From positions 6,112,001 to 6,176,000 of the forward strand of contig OY761158.1 of assembly GCA_963664405.1 (NCBI GenBank): DNA of 64,000 bases, in the 5' to 3' direction. The notes beneath the pieces were generated by a model. The model did not search any database. It worked only from the letters and a program-made list of their open reading frames with translations, and was not told where the DNA came from. Shown here in pieces: positions 964 through 11,036 of the stretch. This DNA comes from Thermoanaerobaculia bacterium. GTDB taxonomy: Bacteria > Acidobacteriota > Thermoanaerobaculia > Multivoradales > Multivoraceae. A program made the translations under genes and the position numbers. How positions within the stretch are numbered: the stretch's first letter is position 1; each line of letters begins with the position of its first letter.

Positions 964-3519
964 ATGAGATCGAGAATCATTCTGCTCGTGTCGCTTCTCT
1001 TCTCGTCGCCGCTGCTCGGCTACGACTTGCCCGCCGAGCTGCGTCAGCGTGTCGATCGTTTGGTGGCGGGGGTCGAAGCCTCGCCGACCACTGCCAATAA
1101 CGCCGTCGAGCGCATGGGCGTGCTCTGGGAGTGGGCTAACGAGGTGTCGGTGCAGGGAGGCTTCGTGCCGCAGAACCTATCTCTCGCCGCACTGTCCATT
1201 CTGCAGGCTCCCGACTATCGCGACCCCGCCAACCCGAGCTTCGGAGCCGATCAGATCGCGGCGGTCGACAACTATACCCGTCATCTTGCCATTCTCGACG
1301 AGGAGCCGAACGCACTGGGAACGGTCTCGATCGAACCTGCTTCAGTCGAGGCGGACACTTTGCAGACGATCCGAGTCACTTGGCGGGTCGGTAGCGCCGG
1401 CGTGGCGGAGGGGGGCGCTCTGATGGTCGCCAGAGGGCGCGCTGGCGGCTACGGCCGCATCCAGACCGAGAATCCGGCGGGCGATAACTACGTCTCGGTG
1501 AGCAGTGGCAATGGGGCAGTGCGTTTCGAGCGCGACGGAGAGGCGCCGGCCTGGGGCCCTTCGATCATCGCGGCCGGGGAGACATTCCCTCTGTTTCGGG
1601 TCCGAGGTGGAGCGTTGAATGAGGGCGATGAGGTTACCGTCGTCTACGGCGACCGCTCGGGCGGAAGCAAGGGCTTCAAGATCGGCATCTTCTCGAACGA
1701 CGCCATAACTCTGCCACTGCAAGTCGATCCCGGCGACGGGAGCTTCTTCTCGGTACCGGTCGCGAGCTTCCGAGTCGTTGGCGGCGAAGCATTCGGAGTC
1801 CATGGTTTCGCACCTTCGATCGTCGCCACCCGCGAGCGCTTCACCATCTCGGTGCGCAGCGAGGACCGCTACTACAACCGAGCGACGGGGGCGATTCCCG
1901 CCTACGAGGTCTATGTCAACGGCGAGCGTGACGGCGAGCTGCCGGCCGGCCAAGCGCTGCACGATCTGCCGATGCGTTTCGCCAAACCCGGCGTCTACCG
2001 CATCTCTCTGCGTAGCTCGGACGGCGCGATCGCGGGAACCGCCAACCCGGTCTGGGTGCAGAAAGAGCCGACGACGCGCCTCTACTGGGGCGAGACCCAC
2101 GGCCACTGCGGTTTCGCCGAGGGGCAGGGGACACCCGAAGGCTACTTCGGCTTCGCCCGTGATGACGCCAAGCTCGATTTCGTCACCCTTACCGAGCACG
2201 ACATCTGGCTGACCGATGGCGAATGGAAGTACCTCAACGAGGTCGCTGCCGAGTTTCATCGCGAGGGAGAGCTGATCGTCTACCCCGGCTACGAGTGGTC
2301 GATGCGTCGGCAGTGGGGTGGGCATCACAACGTCTTTTTCCGCCGCCCGGGCTTCGAGCGCGTGTCGAGCCATGAAGCACCCGTCCTGACTATGTTGTAT
2401 CGGGGGCTACGCGAAAAGCACGATCCCGCCGATGTTCTGATCATCCCCCATGCCCACCAGAATGGCGACTGGCGCCTCAACGACTTCGAGATGGAGCGCC
2501 TGATCGAAGTGATGTCGGGACACGGCACTTTCGAGTGGTTCGGGCAGCGCTATCTGGAGAGCGGCTTCCGGGTCGGCTTCGTCGGCGCCTCCGACGACCA
2601 TCGCGGCCACCCGGGGTACTCGCCCGGGCATCCGTCGACCGAGGGCCGGCGCTCCGGCATCTTCCAGTTCGGCGGCCTGGCCGCGGTCTGGGCACGAAAC
2701 AAGAGCACCGACACTGTCTTCGACGCCCTGAAGGCGCGCAGCGCCTACGGCGTTACCGGCGCACAGCGCATCATTCTCGACGCTCGCCTCAATGGCAGTG
2801 GAATGGGGCGCGAGCTCGAGCCCTCGGAGACTCGGGAGATTGAGGGTCGGGTCATCGGTACCGGGCCGATTCGTGCCATCGAGCTGATCAAGAACAGCAA
2901 GGTGGCGGCGAGCTTCGATCCCGGTGGAGGAGAGGCGGCGAGTGGGGAAGTCGTGGTCGGCTTCGTCTCCGAGTCCTACATCTCGAGGCCGAACCGCGAC
3001 AATCCGCGCGGCCATCGCACCTGGCGGGGCTCTCTGGAGGTCGAGAATGGGGAGGTGGTGAGTGTGCGTTACCTCGGTACGCCGCACCTCGACGCCGACC
3101 GGCTCGAAATCCAAGATGGCAGAGTGCTCTTCGACGTTGCCACACGGGGATCGCGTCGCTCCATCGCCCTGACTCTCGAGGGCGCTTCGCCCTCGCCTCG
3201 TCTCAGCTTCGAGCTCGAGGAGGGCCGCGAGCGGGGGACAGCGCCCACCCAGATCCGGACTCCTCAGCAGTTTGCGGCAGCCCGCTTCACCCTGTCGGTA
3301 CCGACGGCCGGCGATGCGGCCAACGAGGAGGTGCTCCGGACCGGGCGCTATCGCGACCGGGTCACGGTCGAGCGGGCCGCGGGCCTGCGGGACGATGTTC
3401 AGTTTCACTTCTCGGATCGCGGCGAACCGGGAGACTGGTATTACGTGCGGGTCGAGCAGCTCGACGGCCATCTGGCCTGGTCGAGCCCGTGGTGGGTCGG
3501 CGGTGAGCCGCCTCGTTGA
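964..3519 (+). CDS. Secreted DUF3604/PHP-like metallohydrolase (long subtype)
   Basis: Signal peptide; YWGETHGH, LTEHD, GYEWS, GHHNV, IPHAH, ASDDHRGHPG motifs; C-terminal YYVRVEQ..AWSSP. Confidence 0.75.
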   Translation: MRSRIILLVSLLFSSPLLGYDLPAELRQRVDRLVAGVEASPTTANNAVERMGVLWEWANEVSVQGGFVPQNLSLAALSILQAPDYRDPANPSFGADQIAAVDNYTRHLAILDEEPNALGTVSIEPASVEADTLQTIRVTWRVGSAGVAEGGALMVARGRAGGYGRIQTENPAGDNYVSVSSGNGAVRFERDGEAPAWGPSIIAAGETFPLFRVRGGALNEGDEVTVVYGDRSGGSKGFKIGIFSNDAITLPLQVDPGDGSFFSVPVASFRVVGGEAFGVHGFAPSIVATRERFTISVRSEDRYYNRATGAIPAYEVYVNGERDGELPAGQALHDLPMRFAKPGVYRISLRSSDGAIAGTANPVWVQKEPTTRLYWGETHGHCGFAEGQGTPEGYFGFARDDAKLDFVTLTEHDIWLTDGEWKYLNEVAAEFHREGELIVYPGYEWSMRRQWGGHHNVFFRRPGFERVSSHEAPVLTMLYRGLREKHDPADVLIIPHAHQNGDWRLNDFEMERLIEVMSGHGTFEWFGQRYLESGFRVGFVGASDDHRGHPGYSPGHPSTEGRRSGIFQFGGLAAVWARNKSTDTVFDALKARSAYGVTGAQRIILDARLNGSGMGRELEPSETREIEGRVIGTGPIRAIELIKNSKVAASFDPGGGEAASGEVVVGFVSESYISRPNRDNPRGHRTWRGSLEVENGEVVSVRYLGTPHLDADRLEIQDGRVLFDVATRGSRRSIALTLEGASPSPRLSFELEEGRERGTAPTQIRTPQQFAAARFTLSVPTAGDAANEEVLRTGRYRDRVTVERAAGLRDDVQFHFSDRGEPGDWYYVRVEQLDGHLAWSSPWWVGGEPPR

Positions 3520-7990: not shown

Positions 7991-8887
7991 GTGAGGGCTG
8001 GTCATCAGGTGGTTATGACTCTTCAGCGGACGTTGCTGGTCACCCTCCTTTCGCTGGCCGGCTCTGCATCTGTCTGGGCTGAGTGCGGCGAGGCCGGCGT
8101 CGCGGTCCAGATACTAGGGTCGGGCGGCCCGACCGGGTCGAGTCGCGCGTCGGCCGGATACATTGTCTGGATCGACGGAGTCAGCCGCATTATGGTGGAC
8201 GCCGGCGGCGGCACCTTCGCGCATTTTCATGAGTCGGGTGCGAAGGTCGATGACCTGCAACTGCTCGCGCTGAGCCATTTTCATCCCGATCACTCTGCTG
8301 AAGTGCCGGCGATTTTGTGGCCGCGAGGTGGCAACCTGCGCGTCTCAGGCCCGTCTGGGAGCGCGGGATTCCCCTCGCTAGGCGAATTCCTCGACGGCTT
8401 GTTTGGCGCGAATGGCGTATTCCGAGTGTTGAATAGCCGTGCGAGCTTCGACCCGGTAACGGTAGACGCGGCAGTGCGAGCTCCGGTGGAAGTGCTTGCC
8501 GACGAAGAAGTGCGGGTCTCGGCTATCGGCGTGCCGCACGGTTCGGTTCCTGCACTGGCATATCGAGTCGAGGTCGGTGGCTCGAGTGTCGTCTTCAGCA
8601 GTGACCAGAATGGCTCGGATCCGGCGTTTGTGAAGTTCAGTCGCGGCGCGGACGTCTTGATCGTTCATTTCGCCGGTTCGGAAGAAGGCGGCCGAGCGCA
8701 GAGCCGGAATCTGCACGCCAAACCGAGCGTTTGGGGACAGATTGCGACCGATGCCGAGGTCGGCACTCTAGTTCTCAGCCACATCTCTTCGAATCAGGAT
8801 TTCGATGCGAACCTGGCGCATCTGAAGTCACGCTATAGCGGACCACTCGTGGTGGCTGAAGATCTGATCTGCGTAGCTGTCGACTAG
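7991..8887 (+). CDS. MBL-fold metallohydrolase (RNase Z/arylsulfatase-like), secreted
   Basis: LGSGGP, MVDAGGG, SHFHPDH, VPHG, LSH motifs. Start may be the ATG at 8015. Confidence 0.8.
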   Translation: MRAGHQVVMTLQRTLLVTLLSLAGSASVWAECGEAGVAVQILGSGGPTGSSRASAGYIVWIDGVSRIMVDAGGGTFAHFHESGAKVDDLQLLALSHFHPDHSAEVPAILWPRGGNLRVSGPSGSAGFPSLGEFLDGLFGANGVFRVLNSRASFDPVTVDAAVRAPVEVLADEEVRVSAIGVPHGSVPALAYRVEVGGSSVVFSSDQNGSDPAFVKFSRGADVLIVHFAGSEEGGRAQSRNLHAKPSVWGQIATDAEVGTLVLSHISSNQDFDANLAHLKSRYSGPLVVAEDLICVAVD

Positions 8888-9041
8888 GGCTGGCCGCCCA
8901 GGGCACCCCACCTCACCGCGTGCTCGTCACTCCGCTCCTCGCCGTACGCAGAGTACGGCTGCGTCGCCTCGTTCCTGCGCTGCGGCGATCTGGGGCACCC
9001 TGAACGCCCAGCACGGGTTGATGCGAGAAACGCTGGTCTAG
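8884..9041 (-). repeat. CTAG-bounded hairpin element, copy 1 (degenerate left arm)
   Basis: Minus-strand core GACGCAG-CCGTAC-tctgc-GTACGG-CGAGGA; inner inverted repeat with G.T pairs on the minus strand; right end GAAACGCTGGTCTAG identical to the end of the 19945-20110 copy. Confidence 0.7.
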
Positions 9042-9193
9042 TACATGCGTTGCCTTGGTTTGAAACTAGAGGTTTGACCCGTACTCTCGAATTTACATTT
9101 CTGACGTGAGCTTTTCACCCTCTTGACGACTTCGAAGTCGGGGCTCCATACACTTCGAAAGCGCAGTGTTTTACACCTGAAAAGGAGAACAAT

Positions 9194-9415
9194 ATGTCTG
9201 GAGAAACTCGGAACCATCTGGAGCATGTGCTCGAGAACGTCAAGACCAGCCGTCGTGAGGCTCTAAAGCGCCTGCTCGTCGGTGGTGGTGTCTTGGCGGT
9301 TCTACCCCCCGTATCGGTCGCGCTGGCCCAGGGCGGAGGCCGGGGCAAGGGCGAGGGCGGAGGCCGGGGCCGGGGCAAGGGCGAGGGACCAGGCACAGAA
9401 ACAGGAACAGAGTGA
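9194..9415 (+). CDS. Putative RiPP precursor / twin-arginine peptide with Gly-Arg-Lys repeat core
   Basis: Strong RBS AAAGGAG; SRREALK, hydrophobic stretch, ALA-Q; core GGGRGKGE-GGGRGRGKGE; stop overlaps next start (GTGA). Confidence 0.75.
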   Translation: MSGETRNHLEHVLENVKTSRREALKRLLVGGGVLAVLPPVSVALAQGGGRGKGEGGGRGRGKGEGPGTETGTE

Positions 9416-10581
9416 AACTCCTCCTCGTCAAACCTTCAGCGCTGGTGGCGCCGGTGGGAGACGGCTACGTCGTCTACGATGTCGAGGAGGATCAGCTACA
9501 CCACTTGAATCCTTCGGCAGCCCTGATCGTGGAGTTGTGTGACGGCTCCCGTCATCTCGACCAGATCAGGGCTGCTCTCCTCCCTCTGCTCGGCGAGTCC
9601 GGATGGGAGGATTGCGTTCGCTGGATCGACGAGGCGGAGAGGACTGGCCTACTGGTGAGCGGGCCTCCCGCTGGGCTCGGTGGCGCCGAGGTCTCCGCCA
9701 ACCGACTCGTCGAGCTTGCGGATCGCCTTCGTAGCGATGACCGAGTACTCGCGGCGTTCGTTTGCCAGACGCACGCCGCCGAGCTGGCTCCCGACGAGCC
9801 GCTGATGTGGTGTCGACTCGGTGAGCTCGCTCACATCGTCGGTCGCAGAGCCGAGGCGCGCGAAGCGTACGAGCGCTACTTCGAAAGACATCCTGAGGAC
9901 GCGGAGGTCGAGCACATTCTGGTGGCACTCCGCGATGATGCGCCACCGGCGCGAGCTTCCGATCAGTTCATCGAGCAGCTCTATTCGCGCTTCGCATCTT
10001 TCTACGACACCAACATGTGCGACGAGCTCGAGTATCGGGCCCCTCGCCGGCTGTTCGAGGTCGTTTCTCCGACTCTGGCGGGTCGCGATCAGCTCGACGT
10101 GCTGGATCTCGGTTGTGGCACGGGGCTGAACGGCGAGCTGCTTCGCGCTCATGCGCGGCGACTGATTGGTATCGACCTTTCGCCGCAGATGATCGAGCGG
10201 GCTCAGGAGAGAGCGGTCTACGACGAGCTGCATCAGGCAGAGATCACGGCCTGGCTGGAGGGCTGTGCCGCGCGCTACGACCTGATTGCCGCCTGCGACA
10301 CGCTGATCTACTTCGGCGACTTACGCCAGGTGGTGCTGCCGGCGGCACGCAGGCTGAGTGCGAACGGAACGATCGCTTTTACCGTCGAGCGGGGCGACAA
10401 CGCCCCGTTTCAGCTCGGCGACTCGGGGCGCTTCACCCACCACCCCGATCATCTGCGTGCCGTGGCGGCCGAGACTGGACTGTCGGTAGTGGGAATCGAG
10501 GAGACCGTGCTGCGCTCAGAGTACGGCGATCCCGTGGAAGGGCTGGTTGCCGTGTTCTCTACTGACTCGGTCCCTCCCTAG
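9412..10581 (+). CDS. PqqD/RRE - TPR - class I SAM methyltransferase fusion (COG4976-like)
   Basis: N-terminal GYVVYD..HHLNPSAALIVELCDG (PqqD/RRE pattern); TPR-like helices; VLDLGCGTG motif I; DLIAACDTLIYFGDL; SGRFTH. Confidence 0.85.
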   Translation: MKLLLVKPSALVAPVGDGYVVYDVEEDQLHHLNPSAALIVELCDGSRHLDQIRAALLPLLGESGWEDCVRWIDEAERTGLLVSGPPAGLGGAEVSANRLVELADRLRSDDRVLAAFVCQTHAAELAPDEPLMWCRLGELAHIVGRRAEAREAYERYFERHPEDAEVEHILVALRDDAPPARASDQFIEQLYSRFASFYDTNMCDELEYRAPRRLFEVVSPTLAGRDQLDVLDLGCGTGLNGELLRAHARRLIGIDLSPQMIERAQERAVYDELHQAEITAWLEGCAARYDLIAACDTLIYFGDLRQVVLPAARRLSANGTIAFTVERGDNAPFQLGDSGRFTHHPDHLRAVAAETGLSVVGIEETVLRSEYGDPVEGLVAVFSTDSVPP

Positions 10582-10734
10582 TCGTCGGCGACTTTGCCTA
10601 CCACCTGACCCAACATCTCTTCAACACCGAGGAGCGTCTGTTCGCCGATCCCGACGGCACCATCCGAGCGCGTTGCCGACTTGGCCGGAGTCGACTTTCG
10701 ACGTGTGCGCTTATGGATCTTTGCCCGTACTGCT
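10581..10734 (+). pseudogene. C-terminal remnant of APH(6)/hydroxyurea-resistance-type kinase
   Basis: VVGDFAYHLTQHLFNTEERLFADPDGTIR, frameshift, RVADLAGVDFRRVRLWIFARTA; no start or N-terminus. Confidence 0.6.
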
Positions 10735-10798
10735 GTCACGCCTCCAGACGGGAGAGGGATGCGGTCCCCGCCTTCTTGCGATCGATCGCGCCGCACTG

Positions 10799-10966
10799 AA
10801 AGTGGACCGTAACACTCGAACGTTTAGTGGCTGAGTGAGTCATTCGTGGTCGAGATCAAGGCGCGCTGACGCAGGCATATCGGGGACTATGTCGAGGAAG
10901 CGTAACGCAGAGATCGGCCGCGAGGGCCGCTCAGGCGCTAAACGTTTGGGTGTTACGGCCCACTAG
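10799..10966 (+). repeat. Hairpin element, copy 2 (right end CTAG, left end degenerate AAAG)
   Basis: Arms AGTGGACCGTAACACTCGAACGTTTAG / CTAAACGTTTGGGTGTTACGGCCCACTAG; core GGCGCGCTGACGCAGGCATAT..ATGTCGAGGA shared with copy 3. Confidence 0.8.
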
Positions 10967-11036
10967 ATCGAAGGAGACTGCTCGAGGGCGCCTGGAGGCG
11001 GGATACCATCGCCAGGCGCGGAAGGAGAATCTCCTT

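Follow-up and report, generated by a model that had tools for sequence, protein, structure and literature searches.

The 64,000-nucleotide stretch analysed here (the window; contig OY761158.1 of a Thermoanaerobaculia bacterium, positions 6,112,001 to 6,176,000) contains two overlapping genes that encode a 73-residue peptide with a putative twin-arginine translocation (Tat) signal and a 389-residue methyltransferase. The peptide gene begins at the ATG at 9194, which is the earliest start codon in frame, and ends with the TGA at 9413–9415; the GTG start of the enzyme gene at 9412 lies within this stop codon (GTGA). The ATG is preceded by a Shine-Dalgarno-like site, and GGAG-type sites were also found upstream of the ATG in most related loci. 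The coordinates of the features described in the text are given in Table 1.

Residues 19–25 of the precursor are S-R-R-E-A-L-K, residues 27–42 form the Gly/Ala-rich hydrophobic stretch LLVGGGVLAVLPPVSV, and residues 43–46 are A-L-A-Q, with the putative cleavage falling after A45. The 28 residues beyond this point comprise 14 Gly, 3 Arg, 2 Lys and 4 Glu, with no hydrophobic residue and no Cys, and much of this tail is encoded by two near-identical DNA repeats of 24–30 nt at 9330–9387. An earlier note on this DNA had described the twin-arginine segment, the hydrophobic stretch, the A-L-A site and the low-complexity tail of 28 residues, and each was present at the place it had given. A Pfam scan of the 73 residues found nothing, and a scan of positions 8800–11000 for promoters and terminators gave 0 sites of either kind. 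When an index of 5.8 billion proteins was queried with residues 1–46, the precursor itself was the only relevant sequence among 2 candidates, the word index being too coarse for such leaders.

The product of the downstream gene combines three domains. Pfam family PF05402 (PqqD) matched residues 19–57 with 29.7 bits against a cut-off of 23.4. An AlphaFold2 model of residues 1–95, with a predicted local distance difference test (pLDDT) of 84.9, gave as top structural matches the leader-bound lasso B1 proteins (6jx3_B, Z 10.6, rmsd 2.1 over 82 aligned residues; TbiB1, 5v1u_A, Z 10.5), followed by TigE, MibB, PbtF-RRE and a PqqD domain. The RRE is the recognition element of enzymes that act on peptides that are synthesized ribosomally and then modified post-translationally (RiPPs). 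In the model of the whole enzyme, helices occupy residues 96–173 in the tetratricopeptide repeat (TPR) region. This model had a pLDDT of 92.7 and a predicted template modelling score (pTM) of 0.87, and its Rossmann core matched many class I methyltransferases with structural Z values of 17–21. Residues G234, C235, G236, G238 and D255 of the S-adenosylmethionine (SAM) binding site were invariant in 40 enzyme homologues, whose net charge ranged from -9 to -29 with a median of -19; an enzyme this acidic fits the gripping of polycations, as far as composition can indicate.

Among 8,000 candidates examined, the enzyme family comprised 680 proteins at E<=1e-3, and the 119 best homologues besides the window's own were 51–65% identical over 88–100% of the length. 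The RRE, TPR and methyltransferase domains are fused in one chain throughout the family. Homologues carry the JGI label 'predicted TPR repeat methyltransferase', and Atlas clusters are automatically named 'PqqD family peptide modification chaperone'. The paralogues without the PqqD domain (most of L014–L016 and L019–L066) have longer TPR arrays in its place; no convincing peptide gene was found at two paralogue loci, L029 and L040, the PqqD-less paralogues not having been systematically examined for peptides. An antisense open reading frame (ORF) of 194 aa (9649–10233, minus strand) shadows the methyltransferase gene, with a similar one in 10 loci; the simplest account is that it arises as a side effect of a coding sequence that is conserved and GC-rich.

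Table 1. Features of the peptide-methyltransferase locus (window positions) and stem-loops in the spacers of related loci (positions within the named locus)
Feature	Position	Strand	Basis or remark
Shine-Dalgarno-like AAGGAG, 6 nt 5' of ATG	9182..9187	+	sequence
Precursor gene, 73 aa and stop	9194..9415	+	sequence, hidden Markov models, family alignment
n-region, residues 1–19, with family motif (here H-L-E-H-V-L-E-N-V); candidate RRE docking site	9194..9250	+	
Twin-arginine codons R20 R21	9251..9256	+	invariant 12/12; in 149/150 best profile hits
E-A-L-K, Gly/Ala-rich h-region and c-region to A-L-A (residues 22–45)	9257..9328	+	TIGR01409, alignment
Predicted signal peptidase I site after A45	end of 9257..9328	+	putative cleavage
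Core/tail residues 46–73, of low complexity (Gly/Arg/Lys/Glu); presumably methylated and exported	9329..9412	+	
Gene for 389-aa PqqD(RRE)-TPR-class I SAM methyltransferase	9412..10581	+	Pfam, model
RRE (PqqD-fold) domain, about residues 1–85	9412..9666	+	PF05402, AlphaFold2 model, structural matches
TPR helices, about residues 110–185	9739..9966	+	TPR_14, TPR_9, TPR_15 hits
SAM-binding Rossmann core, residues 205–326, motif-I glycines intact	10024..10389	+	Methyltransf_25/12/11, E 3e-13 to 4e-12
Spacer stem-loop	L012 1439-1500		z -3.0
Spacer stem-loop	L021 2389-2488		z -4.7
Spacer stem-loop, then U-run	L022 2332-2440		z -5.3
Spacer stem-loop	L004 3087-3140		z -2.8

Species genomes, metagenomes and genome scans across two phyla supplied the related loci, of which 13 had a full-length enzyme gene with readable upstream DNA (the window, L002, L003, L004, L005, L012, L013, L018, L020, L021, L022, L101 and L102). 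Locus L017 was excluded as it had no upstream DNA, L001/L097 is cut by a contig edge that leaves just the final 43 codons of an ORF rich in K/R/G, and L006 was left out as a partial weak match (E 3e-15) whose genome gave no hit at 1e-50. A peptide gene was located directly upstream of the enzyme gene on the same strand in 12 of the 13 loci, at a distance that varied from a 4-nt overlap in the window to 3–410 nt in the others. These ORFs encode 67–154 aa in one shared layout, in which about 19 residues lead up to RR and a hydrophobic stretch is followed by a small-residue site and a tail of low complexity. L002 is close to L005 and L101 to L102, and the 12 peptides amount to about 10 independent ones. 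The peptide-enzyme pair is conserved. When all ORFs of at least 90 aa from the 13 loci were compared with one another, the enzyme gene and its antisense shadow were alone common to at least three loci. The unit was therefore taken to be two genes, in agreement with the claim of the earlier note that only two are present. The neighbours of the pair in the window are sulfatases, an amidohydrolase, an MBL-fold hydrolase and an aldehyde dehydrogenase-like ORF, and no protease or transporter gene was seen flanking it there. The cassette is sparse: in the window's own phylum the enzyme matched 6 genomes out of 401 at E<=1e-40 (3 full length, one being the window's genome), and in the phylum to which a Pirellulales metagenome-assembled genome (MAG) belongs the enzyme alignment matched 4 out of 401 at E<=1e-70 (3 full length).

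A short ORF of this kind could be a chance open frame in GC-rich DNA, since the region is overlapped by many spurious ORFs and the enzyme gene itself has its gene-sized antisense counterpart in 10 loci. Against this, peptides from several phyla are 23–54% identical with invariant residues and variable tails, the leader has 267 database relatives, and the gene has both a ribosome-binding site and stop-start coupling. The protein-level conservation across loci together with the database relatives refutes a chance origin, which retains practically no probability; the precursor ORF is a real gene.

The database relatives were obtained with a profile built from the 50-residue leaders of the 12 peptides, which was searched against 1.84 billion (1.84e9) cluster representatives and matched 267 protein clusters at E<=1e-3 and 44 at <=1e-10. 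Conservation of the twin arginines among homologous peptides had been set beforehand as a test; they were invariant in all 12 peptides and occurred within an RR-x-h-h motif in 149 of the best 150 of the 267 hits, the exception being a 1,069-aa protein matched in ten short stretches. The 149 relatives are 40–194 aa long (median 96) and carry the leader at the N-terminus; in 115 of them RR begins at position 20 or 21. The earlier note had also considered that the ORF might be the truncated 5' end of a longer Tat protein, and this was rejected on the short lengths of these relatives.

With the first Arg numbered 0, the 149 representatives showed L/I/V/M at -11 (93%), D/E at -10 (91%), L at -7 (95%), V at -4 (87%), P at -2 (55%), F at +3 (76%), L at +4 (95%), K/R at +5 (69%), L at +7 (77%) and +8 (93%) and G at +10 (77%), percentages that are inflated because the same profile selected the hits. 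The leaders continue with a Gly/Ala-rich stretch, then Ser/Thr and then an Ala-rich end. The part from RR onward corresponds to the Tat consensus, and the part before RR forms a second motif that is equally conserved and is not required by that consensus. In the window's own genome the precursor ORF ranked top of 111,098 open frames with 78.8 bits compared to 17.0 for the runner-up, in a ranking where the window's leader is itself among the 12 sequences building the profile. A strict filter for RR plus a hydrophobic segment was passed by 86 of 57,418 ORFs of at least 40 aa, 17 of which were shorter than 200 aa.

Several relatives carry the same leader on other kinds of tail. In P0234, P0263 and P0266 the leader is followed by a folded-looking domain with a YYTTDG motif, in P0129, P0145 and P0154 by a tail without low complexity, about 90 aa long, and in P0151 and P0160 by a tail of Arg and Gly only, with no Lys.

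The Tat character of the leader was examined using the NCBIfam model TIGR01409 (TAT_signal_seq), which matched precursor residues 18–43 with 20.1 bits (E 5.8e-4; curated cut-off 16.7) and matched 10 of the 12 family peptides at E<=1. The Tat consensus is S/T-R-R-x-F-L-K, from which the window differs in having Ala in place of Phe. Residues L13, R20, R21, L24, S41 and A45 were invariant in the alignment of the 12 peptides, and A35 was also invariant when the leaders alone were aligned. The h-region is mildly hydrophobic and is followed by the small-residue site, at which Ala at -1 is invariant and cleavage is predicted. By these sequence features the precursor leader fits the model of a Tat signal. 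TatC was found in the window's genome (232.7 bits) and in 5/5 other cassette genomes, but also in 11/14 control genomes, which makes its presence weak evidence.

It is conceivable that the leader is instead a Sec-type or other signal, in which RR-x-F-L-K is kept solely as a recognition sequence for the RRE and export is Sec-dependent as for the bufferins. Enzyme recognition would equally explain the invariance of RR, the residue ahead of RR is not conserved across the 149 representatives (D 23%, S 21%, G 16%) with S/T in a minority only, and the accessible parts of two papers provide a precedent in Sec signal peptides on RiPP precursors (PMC12452194, PMC11626156). Five residues of the Tat motif (R, R, F, L, K/R) nevertheless recur in the family consensus, which also passes the Tat hidden Markov model, the h-region is Gly/Ala-rich and hydrophobic only mildly, and a separate non-Tat motif ahead of RR is available for RRE recognition. 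Dense positive charge immediately after the cleavage site also disfavours Sec. A Sec-type signal is consequently considered distinctly unlikely.

The hydrophobic segment might also remain uncleaved, as an N-in signal anchor; the cytoplasmic membrane would then present the methylated cationic tail on its outer face. At -3 of the predicted site Leu or some other bulky residue is frequent and two members have Asp, which makes the site poorer than a canonical A-x-A. The Ala at -1 and Ser at -5 are, on the other hand, invariant in 12/12, and the short Gly/Ala-rich h-region with a Pro ahead of the site resembles those of cleaved signals, so that an anchor appears very unlikely. The reading of the leader as serving both enzyme recognition and Tat export is well supported by the sequences compared here.

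The motif ahead of RR consists of an aliphatic residue, an acidic residue, x, h, L, x, x and V at -11 to -4, is absent from the Tat consensus, and is probably the docking site of the RRE, rather than RR itself. The Y/WxxP motif bound by other RREs is absent from the 12 aligned leaders. The earlier note had proposed the twin-arginine segment as the RRE-binding leader; a conserved candidate docking motif is indeed borne by the leader, and its likeliest position is -11 to -4, not RR. The wider interpretation of that note holds for the conservation of RR, the completeness of the ORF and the two-gene unit, with the RRE determinant moved to the pre-RR motif.

The complex of the full enzyme and the full peptide was predicted from alignments of both and gave an ipSAE of 0.58 (runs 0.58, 0.61 and 0.51), graded as weak support, compared to 0.00 for the best of 3 controls; the runs shared at least 33% of contacts, and the pLDDT of the partner was at least 52. 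The mark applied is reached by 116/157 solved complexes and 2/215 mismatches, counts that hold roughly here as custom alignments were used. Scores of 0.60 or less came from just 18/157 solved complexes and from both passing mismatches, which places the predicted complex in a band where passes are more often wrong than right unless the guess is likely beforehand, and the pass may reflect likeness to solved RRE-leader complexes.

All 12 tails contain Lys (2–17 residues) and have a net charge of +1 to +16 with hardly any hydrophobic residue. Arg is missing from 5 of the tails and Asp/Glu, Ser/Thr and Asn/Gln from 1 each, leaving Lys as the sole nucleophilic side chain present in all 12. Of 143 profile hits with a tail of at least 10 aa, 118 had a Lys fraction of 0.10 or more (median 0.17) and 123 a positive net charge, and the median hydrophobic fraction was 0.09. 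Lys N-methylation is predicted because Lys is the only side-chain nucleophile common to the 12 tails, and from these compositions the methyl acceptor would most probably be Lys side chains and possibly Arg.

It has to be considered whether the enzyme methylates the peptide at all. The small protein could be an ordinary disordered envelope protein exported by Tat, with the PqqD domain acting only as an escort or proofreader of the signal peptide, or with the enzyme acting on another substrate. Dedicated signal-binding chaperones of Tat substrates exist in TorD, DmsD and NapD, the methyl acceptor is unreadable from the fold, and the folded domains in P0234, P0263 and P0266 would suit such an escort. 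The invariance of the SAM-binding residues in 40 homologues indicates that catalysis is under selection, however, and the single chain in which the three domains occur family-wide, the strongly acidic enzyme that suits cationic tails and the tight pairing in 12/13 loci likewise argue for modification of the peptide. An escort function alone is therefore regarded as unlikely.

The arrangement that we favour, with moderate confidence, is a two-gene RiPP-like cassette in which the leader docks on the RRE, the tail is methylated in the cytoplasm, and Tat export is followed by removal of the leader by signal peptidase I. The N-terminal 45 residues of the precursor would be double-purpose, serving for enzyme docking and as a Tat signal peptide. 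The n-region motif just ahead of the twin arginines would dock on the N-terminal PqqD-fold RRE of the neighbouring enzyme, and the acidic TPR-methyltransferase would hold the disordered cationic tail and methylate it in the cytoplasm. Once released, the leader would be read by TatBC as a signal peptide, and after export via TatABC signal peptidase I would cut after A45, freeing beyond the cytoplasmic membrane a small polycation, methylated and hydrophilic, that would measure 28 aa here and about 20–110 aa elsewhere. No dedicated protease or pump would be needed because general export and cleavage machinery would be used. What we infer in this mechanism is that the leader binds, which residue accepts the methyl group, the sequence in which the steps occur, export through Tat, where the leader is cut and what the product does.

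Several observations weigh against this mechanism. In addition to the near-redundant loci, the inflated position percentages and the low band of the complex score, the window motif has Ala at the Phe position of the Tat consensus, and at L020 the enzyme gene has no peptide gene upstream. The tail in the window is the weakest of the 12, with just 2 Lys, 3 Arg and a net charge of +1. Among the 143 longer tails 7 have no Lys, the Arg/Gly tails of P0151 and P0160 are two of the profile hits, and a few hits carry folded-looking domains or out-of-frame ends. Structure and sequence searches give no acceptor, the nearest solved chains being N-, O- and C-methyltransferases tied at Z 17–21. By sequence the nearest methyltransferase in the PDB was METTL27 (7qcb, E 3.3e-14), and in the Foldseek and VIA-align searches NodS, UbiG, ChlM, NRMT1/NTM1, phosphatidylethanolamine (PE) and phosphoethanolamine N-methyltransferases, DhpI, CypM, PrmA and others were tied. 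The PRMT family was absent among the Pfam hits of the enzyme, which were generic class I models with PrmA below the cut-off, and the structural neighbours were mixed.

Since the docking motif abuts RR, the bound enzyme could, speculatively, hide the export signal until release. In a further extension, which is doubtful, the RRE would mask the export signal until the tail is methylated, as a 'modify first, then export' gate comparable to Tat cofactor proofreading, within a widespread class of Tat-exported peptides. The products would then be secreted methyl-lysine/arginine polycations, bacterial counterparts of histone-tail or silaffin-like peptides that act on anionic polymers of the envelope or matrix, and the leader/RRE module might be reused with other enzymes, for example at an HprK-like kinase locus in the same genome.

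The closest published parallels are RiPPs whose precursors carry secretion signals. Sec-route signal peptides serve as RiPP leaders in the bufferins, the oxazolins and an NTHi factor (PMC11626156, PMC12452194, PMC11252979), and a lipoprotein-route signal does so in DybA (PMC13056109); the use of a signal peptide as a RiPP leader is called 'highly unusual' in PMC12452194, all as described in the available portions of these papers. According to those portions, in the bufferins and other MNIO RiPPs and in DybA a general-secretion signal replaces the classical leader, modification is cytoplasmic, and export and cleavage rely on housekeeping machinery (PMC12452194, PMC11626156, PMC13056109), as proposed here. 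Their signals are of the Sec or lipoprotein (SPII) type, however, with MNIO enzymes, DUF2063 partners and Cys-rich cores, while the present cassette has a Tat-type signal, an RRE-TPR-methyltransferase and a Lys/Gly-rich core without Cys. None of the bufferin-type features (MNIO DUF692, DUF2063 partner, Cys core) was found: Pfam gave only PqqD, TPR and methyltransferase, the methyltransferase gene is the sole conserved neighbour, and Cys is absent from the core.

Neither 'Tat' nor 'twin-arginine' appears in the main text of PMC12452194 or PMC13056109, and the literature found to pair RiPPs with twin-arginine seems to concern engineering or genome surveys. In the literature searched, with subscription journals outside its scope, no natural Tat-signal RiPP leader (bioRxiv supplements also being outside the scope), no link between PqqD and Tat, and no account of this methyltransferase family, including COG4976, was found; nothing related to RiPP lysine methylation together with a leader peptide was found in openly searchable papers. 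By its sequence the cassette would thus represent a modified peptide that depends on an RRE and relies on a general secretion signal, of a Tat type that is not among the published leaders found.

The N-terminal domain of the enzyme shares its fold with the lasso B1 proteins TfuB1 and TbiB1 and with PqqD (Z 8.5 to the PqqD domain of PqqCD, besides the B1 values given above). Lasso, LPP and PQQ leaders use the Y/WxxP motif (PMC13381572, in the part available), whereas the leader motif here is h-[DE]-x-h-L-x-x-V-x-P-x-RR and runs on into the signal peptide. Unlike in lasso B1 and PqqD, the RRE is fused to TPR and methyltransferase domains. The chaperones TorD, DmsD and NapD are likewise cytoplasmic binders of a twin-arginine signal that could delay export until maturation, a binding that is putative in the present case; their fold is unrelated (the enzyme has no TorD-family Pfam hit), and maturation here would be peptide methylation, not cofactor insertion. 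Two class I lysine methyltransferases, Rickettsia PKMT2 (5doo) and Mycobacterium tuberculosis Rv2067c (8hkr), have an RRE-like winged-helix domain that matched with Z 8.6 and 9.3 (rmsd 2.5, 81–82 aligned residues). That domain is C-terminal, their substrates are folded proteins and not Tat-leader peptides, and neither was among the 50 best structural matches of the whole enzyme model. They could, by analogy, be a precedent for the pairing of an RRE-like domain with Lys methylation, as a lead only.

RiPP pathways are usually recognised by a precursor with its enzyme, protease and exporter. A two-gene cassette that relies on Tat and signal peptidase escapes most genome-mining rules, despite at least 267 leader clusters across several phyla. 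If the proposed mechanism is true, Tat joins Sec and the lipoprotein route as an exit for modified peptides and has a natural case of small disordered cargo, a substrate is identified for the 'TPR repeat methyltransferases', a large group that is unstudied, and it becomes directly testable whether an RRE times export by occupying a signal peptide.

Some further features were noted in the related loci. Stem-loops between genes are common in precursor-enzyme operons, and in 4/5 of the relatives' spacers that were folded the stem-loop between the peptide and enzyme genes was strong (z -2.8 to -5.3), that of L013 not being significant. The peptide ORF of L004 (2769-3086) has no ATG, GTG or TTG at the N-terminus of the family; its frame begins right after AAGGAGG with an ATT nearby, and a non-standard start codon is possible. 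Two MAG loci carry an interrupted enzyme gene, which has 1 in-frame TGA in L003 and is split into two pieces in L004, through either real breaks or assembly errors.

The window's genome has three PqqD genes, and 2/3 of these lie beside RR-leaders when a filter loosened after the fact is applied (background 6.3% per +/-1.5-kb window), compared to 1/3 with the strict filter; this was not counted as evidence. One 55-aa ORF (G000:C1:5847464-5847631, minus strand; L009 317-484, minus strand) combines an RR-x-F-I-R-K motif with a hydrophobic stretch and ends in a Ser-rich segment of 8 residues. The genes just upstream of it encode an HprK-like kinase, a stand-alone PqqD protein that is 53% identical over 36 aa to the RRE of the methyltransferase, and a GT4 glycosyltransferase. 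Scored with the leader profile (13.1 bits, E 0.33), the ORF came 7th among the 111,098 open frames. The sole relative of the HprK-like kinase locus in 301 genomes, L112, contained no RR-leader ORF. The third PqqD gene of the genome is head-to-head with a gene for a 192-aa RR-signal protein (L108 727-1305, minus strand, and 1435-1728, plus strand), which the leader profile placed 15th (10.5 bits, E 2.1), although the part ahead of RR departs from the family motif; next to it is a JmjC/cupin gene.

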